From positions 4,400 through 68,399 of the forward strand of contig JAHITE010000097.1 of the NCBI GenBank assembly GCA_018817585.1: a stretch of 64,000 nt of DNA, read 5' to 3'. Shown here piece by piece: positions 2,363 through 51,790 of this stretch. The stretch comes from Candidatus Omnitrophota bacterium. GTDB taxonomy: Bacteria > Omnitrophota > Gorgyraeia > B26-G9. The position numbers and the translations under genes were made by a program. Below the pieces are notes generated by a model, which saw only the letters and a list, made by a program, of their open reading frames with translations, made no database searches and was not told the DNA's origin. How positions within the stretch are numbered: position 1 is the first letter of the stretch; each line of letters begins with the position of its first letter.

Positions 2363-2423
2363 ACCGTTTTTTGCTATAATAAGATACGGGTAAATAAAGA
2401 TAATAAATTAACAGGGAGTTGGG

Positions 2424-3383
2424 ATGATTATTTTAACTGGCGGAGCAGGATTTATTGGTAGCGGATTTCTTTGGAAATTAAACAGTCAGGGAATTGATGA
2501 TATTATTGTTGTTGATGAGCTTGATCAGACTGAAAAATGGAAAAATCTGGTTGGTAAAAGGTTTGCTGATTATATTCAAAAAGATGAGTTTTTAAGACTG
2601 GTAGTTGAAGATAAACTGCCTGTTCCGACAAAAGTCATACACATGGGGGCATGCAGTTCAACTACTTGTAAAGACGGAGCTTATTTTATTCAGAACAATT
2701 ATGAATATTCGAAAATTTTGGCGCAGTGGGCTTTTTTGCATAAAGCTTCTTTTATCTATGCATCTTCCGCGGCGACATATGGCGACGGAGCTTGCGGTTA
2801 TGAAGATAAACAAGATATTAATCTGCTTAAACCGCTGAATATGTATGGCTATTCAAAACAGATGTTTGATCTTTGGATGCAGAACAATGGATTTGCTAAA
2901 AAAGCTCAGGCAATTAAATTTTTTAATGTTTTTGGGCCAAATGAATATCATAAAGATGATATGAGCAGTGTTGTTTGTAAAAAGTTTAATGAAGTAAAAG
3001 ATAAGGGCAGTATTAGTTTATTCAAATCTTACCATAAGGATTATAAAGATGGTCAGCAACAAAGAGATTTTATATATATAAAAGACGCGGTAGAAGTCAT
3101 GTTTTGGCTGTTTAATAATCCTCAAGCAGCTGGGATTTTTAATTTGGGAGCAGGTAAGGCTCAGACCTGGAATGATCTGGCCAATGCCATGTTTAAAGCT
3201 TTGGGAAAGGCTCCGGTCATTGATTATATAGATATGCCGGATTATCTGCAGCCGAAATATCAGTACTATACTTGTGCCAATATGGATAAGCTTAAAGCTG
3301 CTGGTTGTGATTTTAAATTTTCCAGTTTAGATGATTCAGTGGCTGATTATGTTAAATATCTTGACAAAAACGCGTATTTGTAA
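2424..3383 (+). CDS. hldD: ADP-L-glycero-D-manno-heptose 6-epimerase
   Basis: MIILTGGAGFIGS Rossmann N-terminus and SDR-extended family features, including the YxxxK region and the ...FNVFGPNEYHK motif conserved in HldD/RfaD. Confidence 0.8.
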   Translation: MIILTGGAGFIGSGFLWKLNSQGIDDIIVVDELDQTEKWKNLVGKRFADYIQKDEFLRLVVEDKLPVPTKVIHMGACSSTTCKDGAYFIQNNYEYSKILAQWAFLHKASFIYASSAATYGDGACGYEDKQDINLLKPLNMYGYSKQMFDLWMQNNGFAKKAQAIKFFNVFGPNEYHKDDMSSVVCKKFNEVKDKGSISLFKSYHKDYKDGQQQRDFIYIKDAVEVMFWLFNNPQAAGIFNLGAGKAQTWNDLANAMFKALGKAPVIDYIDMPDYLQPKYQYYTCANMDKLKAAGCDFKFSSLDDSVADYVKYLDKNAYL

Positions 3384-3491
3384 TAAATTTTATTAAGTGT
3401 TAAGTGTAATAAATTAGTTATAGCATCCTGCGGTAAGGATTAGTTAAATCTAAAGCCAAGGGTCGGGAAAAAAGTTTTAATTTGATTATAT

Positions 3492-3527
3492 CCCAACCTT
3501 AAGGAGTATTTAAGGTTGGGTTTTTTT
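3492..3527 (+). terminator. Rho-independent terminator after hldD
   Basis: A 10-bp perfect stem (cccaacctta / taaggttggg) with a 9-nt loop, followed by TTTTTTT. Confidence 0.7.
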
Positions 3528-3542
3528 ATAAAACAGCGGTAT

Positions 3543-3618
3543 GTAGGGGCCGGTCTTGCGCCGGCCCGTGACAATGGAATGATATTAATATACGGGAGGA
3601 CGCAAGGCCCTCCCCTAC
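3543..3618. repeat. short inverted-repeat element, copy A (arms gtaggggccggtcttgcgccggcccgt / acgggaggacgcaaggccctcccctac)
   Basis: The 3' arm is a near reverse complement of the 5' arm. Related copies occur at 27469-27575 and 51632-51725, with a degenerate copy at about 9535-9653. It ends 31 nt before the ATG of the TM1266-like gene. Confidence 0.65.
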
Positions 3619-3649
3619 AATTTCTGATAAAAATAGGAGATGAATTATT

Positions 3650-3913
3650 ATGGAAAAAAGGCTTGGCTTTGTTGGAATTATTCTTGAAGATCGGAAAAAA
3701 CAGGCTGCTGCGGTTAATCAGATTCTCTCAGAATACGGCGATAATATTATCGCTCGGGTAGGCTTGCCATATAAGGAAAGAAACTGTAGTGTTATTACCT
3801 TGACTGTGGATATTACGACTGATGATTTAGGGACAATGACCGGTAGATTGGGCAATATAGCCGGAGTTTCGGTTAAATCCGCATTGAGCAAACAAAATTC
3901 ACAAAATAAATAG
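3650..3913 (+). CDS. TM1266-like small ACT/CopG-type regulator associated with [FeFe]-hydrogenase maturation genes
   Basis: An 87-aa protein with a VGIILEDR...AARVNQILSEYGD...ARVGLPY...SVITLTVD pattern typical of the iron-only hydrogenase system regulator family. AGGAG RBS. It is the first gene of the hydFGE cluster. Confidence 0.7.
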   Translation: MEKRLGFVGIILEDRKKQAAAVNQILSEYGDNIIARVGLPYKERNCSVITLTVDITTDDLGTMTGRLGNIAGVSVKSALSKQNSQNK

Positions 3914-3921
3914 AGGGATTT

Positions 3922-5310
3922 ATGGAAAACAGGATTGAAACCGATCTTTTAGGCAGTAAAGAAGTTTGTCAAGACGCATACTGGGGAATACATACGCAAA
4001 GAGCTTGGGAAAACTTTTCCATAACCGGATATAGAATAAATATTTCACTTATTCATGCTTTGGCTTTGGTAAAAAAAGCTTGTGCCATGGCCAATGCAGA
4101 GCTGGGCTATCTTGATCAGCTAAAAGCTGATTTGACTTGCCGGGCATGTGATGAGATCCATGCCGGGTTGCACAATGATCAGTTTATTGTGGATGCTTTA
4201 CAAGGCGGAGCAGGGACTTCGACAAATATGAATATTAATGAAGTTATTGCTAATATCGCGATTGAAGCAATGAATGAAAAAAAGGGGGATTATACTTTGA
4301 TTCATCCAATTGAAGATATTAATAAACATCAGTCAACAAATGATGTTTATCCCACGGCTTTGAAAATCGCGGTGATCTATAAATTGAATTTATTGAGTGA
4401 GCAGATCGCTAAAGTGCAGGGAGCGTTTCAGGTTAAAGAAAAAGAATTCGCCCGGATTATTAAAATCGCCAGGACTGAATTGCAGGATGCTGTGCCGATA
4501 ACTCTGGGGCTTGAGTTCTCGGGTTTTGCTGAGGCATTTGGCCGGGACAGATGGCGAATGTTTAAATCCCAGGAACGCATTCGCACAATCAATATCGGCG
4601 GCACAGCTGTTGGCACCGGGCTTACAGCTCCGCGCGATTATATTTTTCTAGTAATTGAAAAACTGAGAACGCTGACAAATTTGGGAATTTGCCGGGCGGA
4701 GAATCTGGTGGATAATACAGCGAATAGTGATGCTTTTGGGGAAGTATCGGGAATTATCAAAGCTCACGCGCAAAACCTGATTAAAATATCGCAAGATTTG
4801 AGAATGCTTCATTTGCTTAAAGAAATAGAATTACCGGCTGTGCAGGCTGGATCTTCGATTATGCCAGGCAAAATTAATCCGGTAATTATGGAAGCAATAA
4901 TTCAGGCAGGTTTAAAAGTAATTGCTAATGATTTTTTAATCACCGAGTCAGTAAGCAGAAGTACTTTTCAGATCAATGAATTTATGCCGCTGTTAGCTGA
5001 TTCAATCCTGGAATCTTTGGATATATTAATCAACGCGAATAAAATACTATCCAAACATGTGATGCAGATAAAGGCTGATGAAAAAGTATGCGGCGAATAC
5101 TTAAATAAAAGTTTTGGTTTAATAACCGCGTTTCTCCCTTATCTGGGATATGAAAAAGCCACAGAATTAGTTCAGGAGTTTATCCGGCTTAAAGAAAAGA
5201 GCGATATATGTTTAAGCGATTTTTTACAAGATAAACTAGGCAAGGATTTAGTATCCAAAGTGCTGGATCCGGATAATATTATATCATTGGGGTATAAGCA
5301 AAATGAATAA
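3922..5310 (+). CDS. aspartate ammonia-lyase / fumarase-superfamily lyase, hyd-cluster associated
   Basis: Fumarate-lyase signature GSSIMPGKINPV with conserved TNMN and HPIEDIN-like regions. Size 462 aa. Translationally coupled to hydF by an 8-nt overlap. Confidence 0.8.
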   Translation: MENRIETDLLGSKEVCQDAYWGIHTQRAWENFSITGYRINISLIHALALVKKACAMANAELGYLDQLKADLTCRACDEIHAGLHNDQFIVDALQGGAGTSTNMNINEVIANIAIEAMNEKKGDYTLIHPIEDINKHQSTNDVYPTALKIAVIYKLNLLSEQIAKVQGAFQVKEKEFARIIKIARTELQDAVPITLGLEFSGFAEAFGRDRWRMFKSQERIRTINIGGTAVGTGLTAPRDYIFLVIEKLRTLTNLGICRAENLVDNTANSDAFGEVSGIIKAHAQNLIKISQDLRMLHLLKEIELPAVQAGSSIMPGKINPVIMEAIIQAGLKVIANDFLITESVSRSTFQINEFMPLLADSILESLDILINANKILSKHVMQIKADEKVCGEYLNKSFGLITAFLPYLGYEKATELVQEFIRLKEKSDICLSDFLQDKLGKDLVSKVLDPDNIISLGYKQNE

Positions 5311-6586: not shown

Positions 6587-8057
6587 AAACTGGACTAATC
6601 AACGGATAAAACAAGAGCAAATCGATAAATATTTATCTAATGGAAATAATTTTATTGATCCAGAGAATATAAATGCTTTGATTGAAAAAACAAAAAATCC
6701 AGATAAAGCAACTATTCTTAATATTCTGGAAAAGTCGATGCGGATACAGACGCTAAGCGCGCTAGATGCGGCTTGCCTTTTAAATGTTACTGATCCTGAT
6801 TTATGGGATCTTATGCGGCAAACAGCTTTAAAAGTTAAAAAGAAAGTGTATGATAATCGAATTGTTACTTTCGCGCCCTTATATTTAGGTAATGCTTGCG
6901 TAAATAATTGTCTTTATTGCGCGTTTAGAAAAGACAATCATACAAATCAAAGAAAGATACTCTCATTATCTGAGATTGAAAAAGAAGTCCGAGTGCTTTG
7001 CGGCCAAATTGGGCATAAGCGTCTTGTTGTGGTTTATGGCGAGCATCCGATCACGGATATTGATTATATGGTTGAGTCAGTTAAAACAATCTACGGCATA
7101 AGAGAAAAGACCGCTAAAGGTATTGGGCAAATAAGAAGAGTTAATGTTAATGCCGCGCCGCTTTCGATCGAAGAATTAAAACGTTTGCATGAGGTGGGGA
7201 TAGGAACCTATCAAGTTTTTCAGGAAACTTATCATCCTCAAACATATAAAAATGTGCATCCTGAGAATACACTTAAAAGTAATTATAATTGGCGGCTTTA
7301 TGCCATGCACCGAGCAATGGAAGCAGGAATTGATGATGTGGGTTTAGGGGTATTATTTGGATTGTATGATTGGAAATTTGAAATCATGGGACTGCTCAGC
7401 CATAATCGGGAATTAGAAAAAAAATTCGGAGTAGGCGCGCATACAATTTCTTTTCCGCGAATTGAACCAGCGGATAATACTCCGCTTACTGAGAATTTAG
7501 AATATAAAGTCTTAGATGAGGATTTTAAAAAAATTATTACGGTTTTAAGACTGGCAGTACCGCATACCGGGCTGATCATCACTGCCCGGGAAAATGCCGA
7601 GATCAGAAAGCAGGCTATTGCTTTAGGCATTACCCAAACCGACGCGTCTACTAAAATAGCGATTGGATCATATAGTGATAAGACTGAGAATCAGCAAGGT
7701 CAAAGACAGCAGTTTATACTCGGAGATACGCGCAGTTTGGAAGAACTGATCAATGAATATATTCAGATGGGATATATTACTTCTTTTTGCACCGCGGGAT
7801 ACCGCTGCGGCCGGACTGGGGAGTGCATCATGGATATGCTGCGCAGCGGTAAAGAAGGAAAGTTCTGCAAGCTTAACGCGGTTTTAACTTTTCAAGAATG
7901 GGTTGATGATTTTGCTACAGAGCAGACAAGGACTAAAGCAGAAGAGATAATTGCTAAAGAGATTCAGGAAATAAAGCAAACATTGCCGGATATTTTCGAG
8001 CAGTTTATGGACTATTATAATCGGGTGAAAAATGGCGAACGAGATCTATACTTTTAA
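6561..8057 (+). CDS. hydG: [FeFe]-hydrogenase maturase HydG (radical SAM, ThiH-like)
   Basis: Radical SAM CVNNCLYC motif and a C-terminal additional Cys cluster (CTAGYRCGRTGEC). Overlaps hydF by 26 nt. Confidence 0.85.
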   Translation: MELKTEEPKNWTNQRIKQEQIDKYLSNGNNFIDPENINALIEKTKNPDKATILNILEKSMRIQTLSALDAACLLNVTDPDLWDLMRQTALKVKKKVYDNRIVTFAPLYLGNACVNNCLYCAFRKDNHTNQRKILSLSEIEKEVRVLCGQIGHKRLVVVYGEHPITDIDYMVESVKTIYGIREKTAKGIGQIRRVNVNAAPLSIEELKRLHEVGIGTYQVFQETYHPQTYKNVHPENTLKSNYNWRLYAMHRAMEAGIDDVGLGVLFGLYDWKFEIMGLLSHNRELEKKFGVGAHTISFPRIEPADNTPLTENLEYKVLDEDFKKIITVLRLAVPHTGLIITARENAEIRKQAIALGITQTDASTKIAIGSYSDKTENQQGQRQQFILGDTRSLEELINEYIQMGYITSFCTAGYRCGRTGECIMDMLRSGKEGKFCKLNAVLTFQEWVDDFATEQTRTKAEEIIAKEIQEIKQTLPDIFEQFMDYYNRVKNGERDLYF

Positions 8058-9333: not shown

Positions 9334-9334
9334 C

Positions 9335-9760
9335 GTATAGCGGTTAGCGATTAGGAAAAGCATTAAACCGAAGGCTGAGGGACGAAGGACGCAAAAGCAG
9401 TTATGAATGACTAATGAATTATGAGTGAAAAGCGTAGAACAGAAAACAAATTACTAATTACTAATTTCTAAACTCTAAATAAACTCAAATGACTAAAACT
9501 AAAAAATGGAAGATAGAAAAAGAGCGGGTAAAAGGTAATCGGTTACGAAGCCCGTATCGGTAATGTTTAATGGTTACGGTTAGAAAAATAAATTTAAAGC
9601 CGATAGACTTTGCCTTGAAACGAAACGGGCATCGTCCCCCTAACCGCGAAACCTGTATTGAGTGTTTTTGCGCAATACGCACGACGTTCTACGCAATACC
9701 CCCGCTACACAAAGGCGGGACAAGACAGTCATTTGGTCTCTTTTTAACTGAAAATGCTTG
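9335..9760. repeat. long non-coding block homologous to 51226-51790
   Basis: Shares tagcgtatagc...gattagcgattag[ga]aaaagca...aaaagcag with the 51.2 kb block. Both contain a cgcaatac direct repeat pair spaced exactly 21 bp and a degenerate inverted-repeat copy (about 9535-9653). Confidence 0.5.
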
Positions 9761-9809
9761 AAATTATATATAGATTATGATATCTTGAAATGTCTAACCG
9801 ATCACTATT

Positions 9810-10916
9810 TTGGTATTAAAGTATATGGAAAATAAAAAAACTCCCTTATTTGAACAACACAATAAATTAGGCGCGAAATGTGCTCCTTTTGGCGGATGGC
9901 TTATGCCTATACAATATGAAGGCATAATCAATGAGCATCAATGGACAAGGAATAATTGCGCGGTGTTTGATATTTGTCATATGGGTGAATTCTTGATTCA
10001 GGCTGATGCATTGTCCAGCAATTTAGATAAAATTTTAACCCAGAATTTAGTGGGTATGCCGCTTAAAACCTGCAGATACGGGTTTATGCTCAATGATAAT
10101 GCGGGAATAATTGATGATGTTATTATTTATCGCATAGAGCAGAATAAGTGGATGCTGGTTGTAAATGCCGCAACCCAAGCAGCGGATTTTGAACATTTGC
10201 GGAAAAACTTAGCCAGGAATAATGTTAAGCTGGAAAATGTGTCTAATTCATTGGCAAAGCTTGATTTGCAAGGCCCGCTCAGCCGTGATGTTTTGGTTGC
10301 GATAGCTGGTGAGGGGATTTTAAAACTAGATTATTATGCTTTTGATTATTTTTCAGTGCTGGGAGAAAATATTATTATCAGCCGCACGGGTTATACGGGT
10401 GAACTGGGTTTTGAATTATATGTAAATAATGATAAAGTCATTGAATTGTGGAATTTGCTGTTGGAAAACAAAAAAGTTAAGCCAGCGGGTTTGGGCGCCA
10501 GAGATACTTTAAGATTGGAAGTAGGTTACCCGCTCTATGGCCAAGATATTAATCAAAAAACTACTCCGCTGGAAGCAGGTTTAACAAGTTTTGTAGATAT
10601 GAAAAAAGATTTTATCGGGAAAACTGCTATTGAAAAAAAACAGAAGCAGGGCTTGGAAAAAAAGTTATGTTGTTTTCAAACTGAATCAAGACGCGCTCCG
10701 CGGCATGATTATGAAATATTCGCTAATAATCAAAAAATCGGGATTGTGACCAGCGGGTCTTATTCGCCCAGTTTGGGCTGCGGCATTGGTATGGGTTATC
10801 TTGAAACCCAAATTACCGCGATCGGAACTGAAATAATCCTGCTGCTTGAAAATATTAAAATAAATGCCAAAGTGGTTAAAAGGCCTTTCTACCAAAAAGG
10901 AAGTTTGCGCGCATAA
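9810..10916 (+). CDS. gcvT: glycine cleavage system T protein (aminomethyltransferase)
   Basis: KTPLFEQHNKLGAKCAPFGGWLMPIQYEG N-terminus typical of GcvT. Followed by gcvH and gcvP. Confidence 0.9.
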   Translation: MVLKYMENKKTPLFEQHNKLGAKCAPFGGWLMPIQYEGIINEHQWTRNNCAVFDICHMGEFLIQADALSSNLDKILTQNLVGMPLKTCRYGFMLNDNAGIIDDVIIYRIEQNKWMLVVNAATQAADFEHLRKNLARNNVKLENVSNSLAKLDLQGPLSRDVLVAIAGEGILKLDYYAFDYFSVLGENIIISRTGYTGELGFELYVNNDKVIELWNLLLENKKVKPAGLGARDTLRLEVGYPLYGQDINQKTTPLEAGLTSFVDMKKDFIGKTAIEKKQKQGLEKKLCCFQTESRRAPRHDYEIFANNQKIGIVTSGSYSPSLGCGIGMGYLETQITAIGTEIILLLENIKINAKVVKRPFYQKGSLRA

Positions 10917-27575: not shown

Positions 27576-27590
27576 GATTTCTAAAATATT

Positions 27591-28508
27591 ATGGACCCAT
27601 TCTATTATTCTTTTAATAATTATTTAAAAACCCGCTTTCAATCAAGAGTCCGCAGAATTTCTTTAAACGCGGGTTTTGGCTGTCCGCATAGAGATGAGAA
27701 ATTAGGTCTTAAAGGGTGTTTTTATTGCAATGAAAGCGGATTTGTAAGCTATAAGGATATTAAATTATCGTTAGTTGAGCAGATTGAAACTTCAATGGCT
27801 ATATTTAAAAAACAGTTTAAAGCAGACAAATTTATTGCTTACTTCCAAAATGCCAGCAATACTTACGCTCCAGTTGAAGATTTGAAACAGATTTATGATG
27901 TAATCAAGCAGTTTGATCAGATCATTGGTTTAGCTATATCAACTAGACCGGATTGTATTGATGATCAGAAGCTAAAACTGATTGACAGCTATTGTGGTCA
28001 ATATGAGGTATGGCTTGAATATGGATTACAGAGTATTCATATTCAGACATTGGAACTGTTGAATCGGCAGCATACGATGCAGGACTTTCTTGATGCTGTA
28101 GCTAAAACAGCTAAAACCAGAATTAAAATCGCGGCGCATGTTATGCTGGGAATTCCCGGAGAGTCTAGGCAGGATATGATCGCGACTGCTTTGAGCTTGG
28201 CGCGGCTTCCAATCCAAGCCGTTAAAGTTCACATTTTTCATATCTTAAAAAATACGCGCTTTGCTGAAATATACGAACAAGAGCAGTTTAAATTGATTAG
28301 TGAGCCGGAATATGTGCGGATTGCCTGTGATTTTCTCGAACATTTAAAACCGGATTGCGCGATTATGAGGCTTGTTTCTGAGTCTAGTCAGGAATTACTG
28401 ATAGCTCCGCTATGGATGAATCAGAAACAAAAAATTCTGCATGCTATTGGTAATGAATTTCAGAAAAGAGGCACACATCAGGGTTCGTATTGGGGGAAAA
28501 ATAAATGA
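27591..28508 (+). CDS. radical SAM protein, TIGR01212 (YhcC-like) family
   Basis: ISLNAGFGCPHRDEKLGLKGCFYCN N-terminal Cys motif characteristic of this family. Confidence 0.75.
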   Translation: MDPFYYSFNNYLKTRFQSRVRRISLNAGFGCPHRDEKLGLKGCFYCNESGFVSYKDIKLSLVEQIETSMAIFKKQFKADKFIAYFQNASNTYAPVEDLKQIYDVIKQFDQIIGLAISTRPDCIDDQKLKLIDSYCGQYEVWLEYGLQSIHIQTLELLNRQHTMQDFLDAVAKTAKTRIKIAAHVMLGIPGESRQDMIATALSLARLPIQAVKVHIFHILKNTRFAEIYEQEQFKLISEPEYVRIACDFLEHLKPDCAIMRLVSESSQELLIAPLWMNQKQKILHAIGNEFQKRGTHQGSYWGKNK

Positions 28509-40768: not shown

Positions 40769-40797
40769 GATATCAGCCTATATGTATTGAGGGAAAT

Positions 40798-41724
40798 ATG
40801 AAATTATCAAAATGGGGACAAATTATTAATAAGCGGACAAGGGCAAGCCCTGTCCCTACTATTTTTTTTTGTTTTTTTATGATTACTTTTTTTTCTGCGC
40901 AGGCATTCGCGCTTGAATGGGTGAATTTGCATGAACAATCAGATAAGCTGACAGGGCTTGAATCCGCGGAAATAGCAGCGGCTGAGTATAAAACAATTGA
41001 TTCTTTGTATGTTTTAGGATTAACTTACTTGGCAGAATATAAAGATGACGCGGCGCAAACAATATTTTTAGAGATATTATCTAAAGCTCCAGATACTATC
41101 GAAGCTAAATGGGGGTTAGGGGAAGTTGCCAGGCGCAAATACAAGCTTGCGCAGGCTTCCCAGATATTTGAAGAGCTGATCTTACAATCCCCAGATTTCT
41201 CCCCGAGTTATATTAGTCTGGCTTATATTAAATTCAATTTAAAGGACTATAAACAAGCGATTCTGCTGGCTAAACAGGTAATTAATCAAGGCCAGAAAAA
41301 TGTCGACACAAGCAATTATGTCCGGGCTTATTTAATTTTGGCAGGAGCAAATGGAATGCTGGCGGAAAATGGCGGGCCATTAGCCAAAGTTATTCACGGG
41401 ATTGGTGTTTTTTCGATGCTTAAGAAAGCTGAGAAATTACAGCCGGAATGTCCGGGAGTTTATTTTGGATTAGGAACATTTTATTTGATGGCTCCCGGGT
41501 TTGCTGGAGGAGATATTGAAAAATCTTTTATCTATCTTGAACAAGCGATTCAGCTTGATCCCAATTTAATTGATGTTTACGCGCGTTTAGCTCAAGCCTA
41601 TAAACAAAAAGGTGATATCCCGAAATTTAAAGAATATCTTAATTTAGCTTTAGAAAAAGACCCGAACAATCTACTTTCCCAGGAAATCAGACAAGAGAAT
41701 CTATTAATTATCCAGGCGGATTAA
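40798..41724 (+). CDS. secreted TPR-repeat protein (paralog of 54121-55014)
   Basis: Signal peptide ending AFALEW. TPR-like repeats. Alignable along its full length with the 54121 gene (shared IEAKWG, (F/Y)ISL(S/A)YIKFNLK(E/D)Y, YLNLAL). Confidence 0.7.
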   Translation: MKLSKWGQIINKRTRASPVPTIFFCFFMITFFSAQAFALEWVNLHEQSDKLTGLESAEIAAAEYKTIDSLYVLGLTYLAEYKDDAAQTIFLEILSKAPDTIEAKWGLGEVARRKYKLAQASQIFEELILQSPDFSPSYISLAYIKFNLKDYKQAILLAKQVINQGQKNVDTSNYVRAYLILAGANGMLAENGGPLAKVIHGIGVFSMLKKAEKLQPECPGVYFGLGTFYLMAPGFAGGDIEKSFIYLEQAIQLDPNLIDVYARLAQAYKQKGDIPKFKEYLNLALEKDPNNLLSQEIRQENLLIIQAD

Positions 41725-51225: not shown

Positions 51226-51790
51226 AAATAGCGTATAGCCCTTCGACTTTGCTCAGGGTAAACGATTAGCGATTAGAAAAAGCAAGAAGCAAAGAGCGCT
51301 TGGCTAATAGCTGATCCTCCTTTGCCAAGGCTTCGGAGGACAGGTGGCTGATAGTAAAAGCAGAAAAGCAAAAGCGATTAAAAAAGGTCACTGGAAAGCT
51401 AAAAGCTATAAACTATAAAGGACAGGAATAATTATTTAGGCGGGTTTGAAGCCTGATTTTGATAGGACTGGCAAAATCAGAGATTCATCCTCGGAGTCCC
51501 GCAGGATGCGGGACGAGAATGAGCCAAAATGATTGATTCCGGACCGCCATTGATTAGCTGGCTACAAGATGATAAGTAAATTTTACGCTGACACAAAGTT
51601 TGTAAAGTTCATAAAGTAGCTAGATTATATGGTAGGGGCCGTGCTTGTCCCGGCCCGTAATAATATGGATTATTAAATCGGGCAAATGATTGATAAGCGG
51701 GCGCAGGCAAGTTGCGCTTCTATGGTTAATTAATCGCAATACGTGATACTCACTACGCAATACTGAACCACAGGTTTCCCTTAATTGTGT
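51226..51790. repeat. long non-coding block homologous to 9335-9760
   Basis: Shares tagcgtatagc...gattagcgattagaaaaagca and cgcaatacg-N13-ctacgcaatac with the 9.3 kb block. It embeds inverted-repeat copy E. Confidence 0.5.
51632..51725. repeat. short inverted-repeat element, copy E
   Basis: 5' arm gtaggggccgtgcttgtcccggcccgtaataat is about 85% identical to copy A. The 3' arm gcgggcgcaggcaagttgcgc matches the 3' arm of copy C. Confidence 0.6.

Follow-up and report, generated by a model that had tools for sequence, protein, structure and literature searches.

GTAG-tagged hairpin doublets in an Omnitrophota contig are probable REP elements of the type associated with subclass 2.4 RAYTs

Introduction

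The closest described counterparts of the elements reported here are the repetitive extragenic palindromes (REPs), for which roles in mRNA stability, termination and translation have been published (Quentin et al. 2018, PMC6006769). Di Nocera et al. 2013 (PMC3733652) described a super-family of GTAG-tagged REPs in which sub-families carry alternative, complementary stem residues, in which in-frame insertions of REPs into open reading frames (ORFs) also occur, and in which dimers have partners 1-5 bp or 20-100 bp apart, the HH arrangement (GTAG termini outside) being the commonest. In Quentin et al. 2018 (PMC6006769), TnpA_Y1 subclass 2.4 corresponds to group 4 among REP-associated tyrosine transposases (RAYTs) in Bertels et al. 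2017; the class is scattered across phyla, the stems of its REPs start from three G-C pairs at the bottom, and REPs lying in frame within tnpA_REP, between its HuH motif and its Y motif, are given there as unique to this subclass. Table S1 of the same work lists GTAGGGGCGACCCTTGCGGTCGCCC, with the loop CTTGC, for the subclass 2.4 RAYT ABG58622.1 of Cytophaga hutchinsonii. Regarding recognition, Corneloup et al. 2021 (PMC8266576) found in vitro that single loop positions and the GTAG matter for short, perfect-palindrome REPs and that the enzyme binds the folded single strand strand-specifically, specific stem contacts being reported only for the E. coli enzyme, for which most stem contacts are non-specific. 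Here we describe a family of inverted hairpin repeats in 64,000 nucleotides of a Candidatus Omnitrophota bacterium (GenBank assembly GCA_018817585.1, contig JAHITE010000097.1, positions 4,400 to 68,399; this whole stretch is hereafter called the window) and compare it with these systems.

We consider it likely, with a probability of roughly 85%, that the elements are GTAG-tagged REPs arranged as inverted HH dimers. They would thus be non-autonomous elements of the bacterial interspersed mosaic element (BIME) or REPIN type, spread by a RAYT in the past and now vertically inherited, with some copies decaying and some perhaps co-opted by the host.

Results

A 27-nt hairpin unit recurs at four loci

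The repeated unit, GTAGGGG-N5-CTTGY-N5-CCCGT, is 27 nt long and is present in the 64-kb window as six full copies and one truncated copy distributed over four loci, which we call A to D (Table 1). Unit positions 5-12 pair with positions 18-25, forming an 8-bp stem closed by the 5-nt loop CTTGY, and in the six full units the GTAG stands directly at the foot of this stem, in agreement with the definition of a GTAG-tagged REP that we applied (a GC-rich hairpin with a stem of 6-13 bp, a short loop and an unpaired GT(A/G)G 0-2 nt 5' of the stem). A pattern search tolerating up to three mismatches returned five matches in the window (four exact, the fifth with three mismatches), compared with 0.08 expected by chance from 100 dinucleotide-preserving shuffles of the window, none of which reached five. 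Furthermore, a covariance model (CM), R1, built from 65 distinct units recovered six full units at E values of 2e-12 to 2e-7, with match extents of 3542-3569(+), 3592-3619(-), 27549-27576(-), 40833-40860(-), 51631-51658(+) and 51697-51724(-); all six belonged to the training set of R1, and four match the exact pattern independently of it. The 4.4 kb immediately upstream of the window contain no further units.

Loci A (3543-3618), B (27468-27575) and C (51632-51723) are inverted pairs with the GTAG outside, their arms separated by 22, 62 and 38 nt, respectively. Within each pair the two arms have different stems (the window arms include CCGGT/GCCGG, AGGGC/GTCCT, CGCTG/CTGCG and CAGGG/CCTTG), such that A, B and C each combine inverted REPs, a short spacer and two REP types in the manner of BIMEs and HH dimers. 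Three of the four loci are intergenic and one (D) probably lies in frame inside an ORF. When the four loci are aligned, homology spans the AT-rich core beside the 3' arm (consensus AAAT.ATT.ATAA.CGG), and alignment of copies A and B confirms a common 3' flank, (R)ATTTCT..A.AAAATA. A first-pass annotation, made by a model from the sequence alone, had reported A, B and C as three clear copies formed by inverted arms of about 27 nt and had pointed out the flank shared by A and B; pattern search and covariance model bear out all three copies, with a self-folding unit of 27 nt, but the annotation had overlooked the unit at 40833-40859(-).

Stem pairing is kept while stem sequence varies

Every arm folds on its own, and stems vary among copies yet stay complementary. 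In the alignment of 65 units, 95.2% of cells are paired, whereas shuffles give 71.8% and sliding the partner gives 44-54%, and double-change cells number 113 against 36 in shuffles. The same tendency is seen in 116 of the 141 listed exact-pattern matches, which are complementary at five of five N positions, positions that the pattern itself had left free. At the stem bottom, GGG...CCC varies little or not at all across units, and the flanks are unconserved apart from a preference for a pyrimidine (Y) at the base 5' of GTAG, which identifies the hairpin itself as the unit. In a sample chosen regardless of pairing, G-T outnumbers A-C on the GTAG strand by 13 to 4, an excess that weakly supports folding of this strand. 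Selection for stem structure, proposed in the first-pass annotation on the grounds that the hairpins of one copy are maintained by different sequences, is supported by these comparisons (95% paired versus 72%, and 113 double changes versus 36). Its remark that the CUUG loops of 5' arms are complementary to the CAAG loops of 3' arms is correct as an observation, but this complementarity is a trivial outcome of the inverted orientation of the arms.

Copy A as a whole can also fold into one long hairpin (DNA minimum free energy -21.4 kcal/mol, z -4.6). For copies B and C the fold consists of small hairpins apart from each other (z -2.5 and -1.3, respectively), and an arm-to-arm fold is found in A only; the near-identical arms folding into one long hairpin that characterize REPINs are therefore not a property of the family. 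The Rfam scan that had been suggested matched no family to the elements, whether at gathering score or at E <= 1.

The unit is widespread among bacteria and accompanies RAYT genes at some loci

Scanning one genome per species with the exact pattern returned at least 120 DNA stretches. Among the matches listed, the unit occurs in at least 15 phyla, with covarying stems and mostly as an inverted pair; the hosts comprise Gammaproteobacteria, Clostridia, Chloroflexota, Acidobacteriota, Planctomycetota, Verrucomicrobiota, Bacteroidota, Desulfobacterota, Myxococcota, Latescibacterota, Margulisbacteria, NC10, Armatimonadota, Gemmatimonadota, Omnitrophota and others. A looser scan of the 120 listed loci (designated by L numbers where they must be told apart) yielded 251 units, versus 0 in shuffled DNA. 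Neighbouring units were arranged with the GTAG outside in 67 cases, inside in 26 and as direct repeats in 6 (67 of 99 thus being inverted with the GTAG outside). The gaps between neighbours cluster at 2-6 and 14-30 nt, overall arm spacing ranges from 2 to more than 100 nt, and copy A, with its 22-nt gap and outward GTAG, represents the typical form. In a Chloroflexi contig of 74% GC (L034, 1918-2160), four matches to the pattern recur at intervals of 54 nt; because complementarity is lacking at their N positions (1-2 of 5), they were rejected as REPs and attributed to a tandem repeat matching by chance.

All-against-all clustering of the ORFs around the unit in the 120 listed loci revealed no dominant neighbour family except a small RAYT cluster, which argues against a gene-specific regulatory motif. 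RAYT-like genes are present in 5 of these 120 loci, which had been chosen by hairpin pattern alone, and the association between unit and RAYT is strong. Proteins of this family have in common an HUH motif, ..MPNHLHGII.., and the motif ..Y(I/V)..NP.. near the C terminus; the L006 member matches NF047646, 'REP-associated tyrosine transposase' (81.7 bits, cutoff 80), as well as PF01797 (Pfam Y1_Tnp), and 4ER8, E. coli TnpA_REP, is the one PDB structure that it matches. Units flank these genes or lie inside them: the L006 gene lies between arrays of 13 units in all, the L004 gene (7293-7796, minus strand) is bracketed by inverted units of the same stem at 7234(+) and 7815(-), and units lie inside a RAYT-like ORF in L115 (6921-7055). 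In L032 (6855-6925) and L042 (362-456), a doublet with the GTAG outside sits in frame inside the RAYT ORF, between the HUH and Tyr motifs, and translates as ..VGAPLAGA...RAGASPAPT... The unit shares both attributes of subclass 2.4-associated REPs, namely three G-C pairs at the stem bottom and in-frame REPs within tnpA_REP, and the window motif is identical to the REP of C. hutchinsonii ABG58622.1 (GTAGGGG-N5-CTTGC-N5-CCC). No string matching the motif is present in the supplementary material to Di Nocera et al. 2013 (PMC3733652).

Related contigs show conservation, insertion and decay of individual copies

Contig L123 (JGI), which shares 85.7% identity with the window across 10 kb, has copy A in the same place, 100% identical. 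The longest perfect run of this alignment, 111 nt at 3521-3631, covers copy A together with 3619-3631 of its 3' extension, coding runs being at most 60 nt. Conservation of copy A, which is measured on one genome pair (window and L123), hints at a use for the host.

For copy B, the relatives provide both occupied and empty sites. Contigs L150 and L151 encode a radical SAM protein 85% identical to that of the window, preceded by an intact doublet that ends 15 nt before the ATG, has the full 5' unit GTAGGGGCCGCGCTTGCCCCGGCCCGT where that of the window is truncated, and is followed by the same ATTTCTAAAATA extension, though the upstream gene differs from the window. Two lineages with unlike upstream genes accordingly have copy B at the same 15-nt distance from the radical SAM ATG. 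L153 encodes a radical SAM protein 81% identical, with the SpoU methylase neighbour of the window, and a 6-nt spacer there constitutes an empty site; since the 15 nt that precede the radical SAM start codon have no counterpart in it, they appear to be insertion-borne. The first-pass annotation had proposed a search of relatives for such sites, and a second was found for copy D: in L154, which lacks D, the cupin-TPR gap measures 10 nt, where the window has 29 nt before a conserved start context, followed by D. From this conserved ..GGAAATATGAAA.. context, the TPR-protein ORF of the window (40798-41724) reads copy D in frame (..INKRTRASPVPTIFF..) and encodes ..KRTRASPVPT.., the insertion adding 16 residues to the signal-peptide n-region (MKLSKWGQIINKRTRASPVPTIFF..., 40798-40880); the L154 orthologue starts MKIKLNVMLLL.... 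Copy D is thus probably translated in frame, from a putative start codon. By assembly, copy B is present in GCA_018817165.1, its empty site in GCA_043805415.1 and the empty site of D in GCA_054043625.1. Decay is evident at three of the four loci, B having a truncated arm, C a decayed GTAG head and D no 5' arm.

Over 115 nt, core included, copy C shares 74% identity with the doublet of L150. As homology between copies runs through the core, the doublet is the copied unit, a trait shared with REPINs.

Several further differences among these contigs were observed around the REP loci. Gene order breaks at or next to them (window 2363-3650 versus L123 5397-7740, L154 259-1860 and L150 9830-10000): in L123 an extra small ORF of about 115 codons separates the epimerase gene from the terminator and copy A, L154 has an epimerase-family gene and then the radical SAM gene, and in L150 a PDDEXK nuclease gene precedes copy B in place of the SpoU gene. 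A short hairpin repeat, CCTCCTTCGCCAAGGCTATGGAGGAC, is located upstream of the radical SAM gene in L151 (~150-185) and L154 (~1255-1290).

Possible host roles

Between copy A and the ATG at 3650 lie 31 nt, and between copy B and the ATG at 27591 lie 15 nt, distances that the first-pass annotation had given correctly. It is conceivable, though we regard it as rather doubtful, that the elements, while derived from REPs, now mainly serve the host, either as mRNA 3'-end stabilisers or weak terminators for upstream genes or as a 5' hairpin and translation-initiation region for downstream genes; such service would be compatible with a REP origin. The 111-nt stretch identical in L123 against a background of 85.7%, the fixed 15-nt distance of copy B in two lineages together with the absence of those 15 nt from the empty site, and the published roles of REPs noted above (PMC6006769) all speak for it. 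Against it, the hairpins carry no T-tract, and copy A directly follows a canonical intrinsic terminator (3492-3520), so that it is not needed for termination; sigma-70 consensus scans in and around A, B and C found no consistent forward-strand promoter and none inside the elements; B, C and D are truncated or decayed; and the conservation evidence comes from a single genome pair. The promoter function that the first-pass annotation had proposed alongside 5'-UTR functions finds no support in these scans; the 15 nt that seem to have arrived with copy B and the perfect run around copy A are two indirect hints of such functions. Action as a 5' leader or stabilising hairpin is possible.

A bolder and more tentative proposal, which we hold to be unlikely as a whole, is that this Omnitrophota lineage has domesticated an old REP doublet, which would now be a cis-acting module. 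A conserved leader of the [FeFe]-hydrogenase maturation operon (TM1266-like regulator, HydF, HydG, HydE) would be formed by copy A and the terminator, and copy B would serve the TIGR01212 radical SAM gene as translation-initiation region. On a wider scale, one RAYT-REP partnership with a single REP type, GTAGGGG-N5-CTTGY-N5-CCCGT, preserved in sequence, would have spread horizontally over at least 15 phyla. If true, such spread would run counter to the usual view of REPs as species-specific and vertically inherited. The perfectly conserved copy upstream of the hydrogenase-maturation operon offers a small, testable case of possible host co-option.

Other explanations of the repeats

We judge it improbable that the repeats are a structured cis-regulatory RNA, that is, a leader or riboswitch-like element in the 5' untranslated regions of downstream genes that is unrelated to transposition. 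Strong stem covariation, the G-U excess over A-C on the GTAG strand, the placement of copy A within the longest perfect run of the L123 comparison, and the closeness of three copies to a start codon, which they overlap or precede by 15-31 nt, would be expected of such an RNA. However, the inverted pairs put units on both strands, so that only one arm per pair shows the GTAG strand in any transcript, and arrays, units in coding frame and RAYT-flanking units occur in unrelated contexts in at least 15 phyla; nor is there a recurring neighbour gene family or an Rfam match, and relatives have empty sites.

Correia and RUP elements are miniature inverted-repeat transposable elements (MITEs) with terminal inverted repeats (TIRs) and are moved by DDE transposases. 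A MITE of this kind (Correia, RUP or ERIC-like) would be consistent with an intergenic inverted repeat of 76-107 nt around an AT-rich core, but is hard to credit: each arm folds on itself and its stem is free in sequence while pairing is kept, unlike TIRs; single units and arrays exist, with arm spacing from 2 to more than 100 nt; the flanks are unconserved save the Y before GTAG; and the enzyme found elsewhere is an HUH-Y1 RAYT, no DDE partner having been seen near units. Of the two comparisons combined in the first-pass annotation, the likeness to BIMEs stands, given the inverted pairs of GTAG-tagged hairpins and the RAYT-flanking units elsewhere, whereas that to Correia and RUP elements is not supported, each arm being a self-folding hairpin with a 5' GTAG. 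A palindromic operator for a dimeric DNA-binding regulator, suggested by inverted symmetry and position upstream of genes, is scarcely credible, because the arms are not evenly spaced (22, 38 and 62 nt in the window), the variable bases are those that a sequence-specific protein would read on duplex DNA, and the unit is spread over phyla and also lies inside ORFs.

Probable mobilisation of the doublets by a RAYT

By analogy with the systems studied, REP doublets of this kind would be acted on by a RAYT/TnpA_REP, an HUH-Y1 enzyme related to IS200/IS605 TnpA that binds the folded single strand. The enzyme would recognise GTAG and particular loop bases, as with short perfect-palindrome REPs, and would then cleave and rejoin beside the unit. 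Stem contacts would be largely non-sequence-specific, as with E. coli TnpA_REP, which would leave GTAG, loop and foot constant and allow the stem to covary. Copies in the source genome were probably spread by such a RAYT and would now be old and mostly vertically inherited, as suggested by the lack of near-identical copies and by the truncated, decayed or missing arm at three of four loci. Some may have been co-opted, candidates being the perfectly conserved copy A, copy B with the 15 nt it gives before a start codon, and copy D with its added signal-peptide residues.

Several observations weigh against this REP interpretation. With five RAYTs and the Y1 transposase of contig L122 as tblastn queries, no RAYT was found in the window, nor by tblastn in DNA from related Omnitrophota and hyd loci amounting to about 400 kb. 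A single Y1 transposase is encoded near the window, that of L122, and it is not REP-flanked. The DNA of the source genome covered amounts to about 68 kb, the stretch to which the window copy counts refer. The copies are diverged, with 62-77% identity over the core and no two window copies near-identical, and core identity of this level gives no sign of recent transposition. Finally, as the two arms have unlike stems, most pairs lack the single long hairpin of a strict REPIN.

The L122 gene itself was considered and rejected as the cognate enzyme. L122 is an ENA contig of the source organism reaching 4.4 kb upstream of the window, and its positions 315-1265, about 4.2 kb upstream of window position 1, hold a gene of 316 aa combining Y1_Tnp and Bac_DnaA_C. 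On its flanks the gene has inverted repeats of GGGGTCAGACCTCC as well as GCAAAAC repeats, with runs of GNAAAACAC / GCAAAACCG (L122 250-1340). By the criterion of what flanks the gene it is not cognate, because it has its own GGGGTCAGACCTCC repeats as TIRs instead of GTAG hairpins, with no GTAG units beside it. From its sequence, this DnaA_C-fused gene fits the published TIRYT class, TnpA_Y1 subclass 2.1, for which GGGGWSAS terminal repeats are described in PMC3733652 and PMC6006769. The short repeats around it could be boxes for the DnaA_C-like domain.

A separate element at 9.5 kb and feature coordinates

The first-pass annotation had listed 9535-9653 as a degenerate fourth copy. This assignment is rejected: the region has no CM match (E > 10) and belongs to a separate element (9502-9669) consisting of a ~110-nt inverted repeat that forms a long imperfect hairpin with termini GGTTACGAWGCCCGTWTCG, upstream of gcvT. 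The element is almost perfectly conserved in L123 (13544-13711; perfect runs over window positions 9502-9582 and 9616-9669), and a second L123 copy, 82% identical, lies at 4972-5081 between hycI and hypA, where the window has 8 nt; the CCCCTA resemblance to the REP units is absent from this second copy. By these comparisons the element looks mobile and is not a GTAG REP. The 570 nt at 9334-9902, which hold no annotated gene and precede the gcvT-gcvH-gcvP operon, gave no match to the glycine riboswitch or any other Rfam family (gathering score, E <= 1).

A direct repeat with a 21-nt period, CGCAATAC-N13-CGCAATAC, occurs at window positions 9671-9699 and 51735-51763 and also at the end of L153 (~20890-20912). 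Both window occurrences lie 12-18 nt downstream of an inverted-repeat element. The repeat could serve as a binding site or belong to some larger composite repeat; comparison of all intergenic regions with one another by blastn brought up no convincing repeat of the latter kind.

Table 1 Positions of REP units, spacers, extensions and the separate element at 9.5 kb in the window
Feature	Position	Strand	Evidence
Copy A, 5' REP unit GTAGGGGCCGGTCTTGCGCCGGCCCGT	3543..3569	+	Exact pattern match; CM 42.0 bits, E 2.9e-12
Copy A, AT-rich spacer, 22 nt	3570..3591	.	Sequence
Copy A, 3' REP unit, inverted, GTAGGGGAGGGCCTTGCGTCCTCCCGT; stem sequence unlike 5' unit	3592..3618	-	Exact pattern match; CM 41.7 bits
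3' extension AATTTCTGATAAAAAT, common to copy B and the L150 orthologue of B	3619..3634	+	Alignment, L150 sequence
Separate inverted-repeat (long hairpin) element, not a member, upstream of gcvT	9502..9669	+	No CM match
Copy B, truncated 5' unit TGTAG-GGACTTGTCCCT-GT, 5-bp stem	27468..27486	+	CM 9.5 bits, E 0.97
Copy B, AT-rich core; 3' part AATCGGTAAAATCATTTATAAAC homologous to C and D cores	27487..27548	.	Repeat search, alignment
Copy B, 3' REP unit GTAGGGGCGCTGCTTGTCTGCGCCCGT	27549..27575	-	Exact pattern match; CM 42.4 bits
3' extension GATTTCTAAAATATT up to ATG of TIGR01212 radical SAM gene	27576..27590	+	In L150/L151 (AATTTCTAAAATACC), not in empty L153 site
Copy D: core remnant 40790-40832 and one REP unit 40833-40859 GTAGGGACAGGGCTTGCCCTTGTCCGC	40790..40859	-	Pattern, repeat search, CM 33.5 bits
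Copy C, 5' REP unit GTAGGGGCCGTGCTTGTCCCGGCCCGT	51632..51658	+	Exact pattern match; CM 38.8 bits
Copy C, AT-rich core	51659..51696	.	Alignment
Copy C, 3' unit, decayed head, ATAGAAGCGCAACTTGCCTGCGCCCGC	51697..51723	-	CM 28.6 bits, E 1.6e-7

Discussion

REPs are already a well-described class, and the present elements leave the current understanding of them unchanged. Their probable identification places a REP/BIME family in the Omnitrophota, a mostly uncultured phylum, and points to one short REP type, with GTAG, loop and foot fixed and the stem free, as common to very distant bacteria along with subclass 2.4 RAYTs. For annotation, such elements would explain GC-rich hairpins in AT-rich intergenic DNA, contig breaks of metagenome-assembled genomes at these sites, and spurious low-complexity peptides (..RAGASPAPT.., ..VGAPLAGA..) in predicted proteins.

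Among the known systems, E. coli BIMEs pair arms of unlike stem types (Y and Z REPs), as do the window pairs. The E. coli REPs themselves (GTAG-3, RAYT group 2) differ in having long bulged stems, the window units being short and nearly perfect. The likeness to the ends of IS200/IS605 elements (IS608, ISDra2) lies in an HUH-Y1 enzyme that reads a folded strand and in a tetranucleotide 5' of the foot at the guide-sequence position (PMC8266576); unlike those elements, the window arms have no transposase gene between them, and the ends of the insertion sequences are not GTAG-tagged. With the REPINs of P. fluorescens (Bertels and Rainey 2011, PMC3116915) the family has in common a copied doublet, presumed mobilisation by a single-copy RAYT and long vertical persistence. 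It departs from them in that REPIN arms are near-identical and fold into one long hairpin, a fold seen in the window only for copy A, and in that REPIN populations consist of many near-identical copies, of which the window has none.

The HH dimers of GTAG-tagged REPs (PMC3733652) are likewise inverted with the GTAG outside, are spaced by 1-5 or 20-100 bp, use alternative stems and insert into ORFs. Relative to the REPs of subclass 2.4, the window copies are few, diverged and partly decayed, with no cognate RAYT in the ~68 kb of source genome, and Omnitrophota are not named as a host in the portions of PMC6006769 and Bertels et al. 2017 considered here. The resemblance extends to the GTAG at the foot, the three bottom G-C pairs, the 8-bp stem, the 5-nt loop and the scattered distribution across phyla, as well as to the REPs that the transposase carries in frame between its HUH motif and its Tyr motif, as in L032 and L042.

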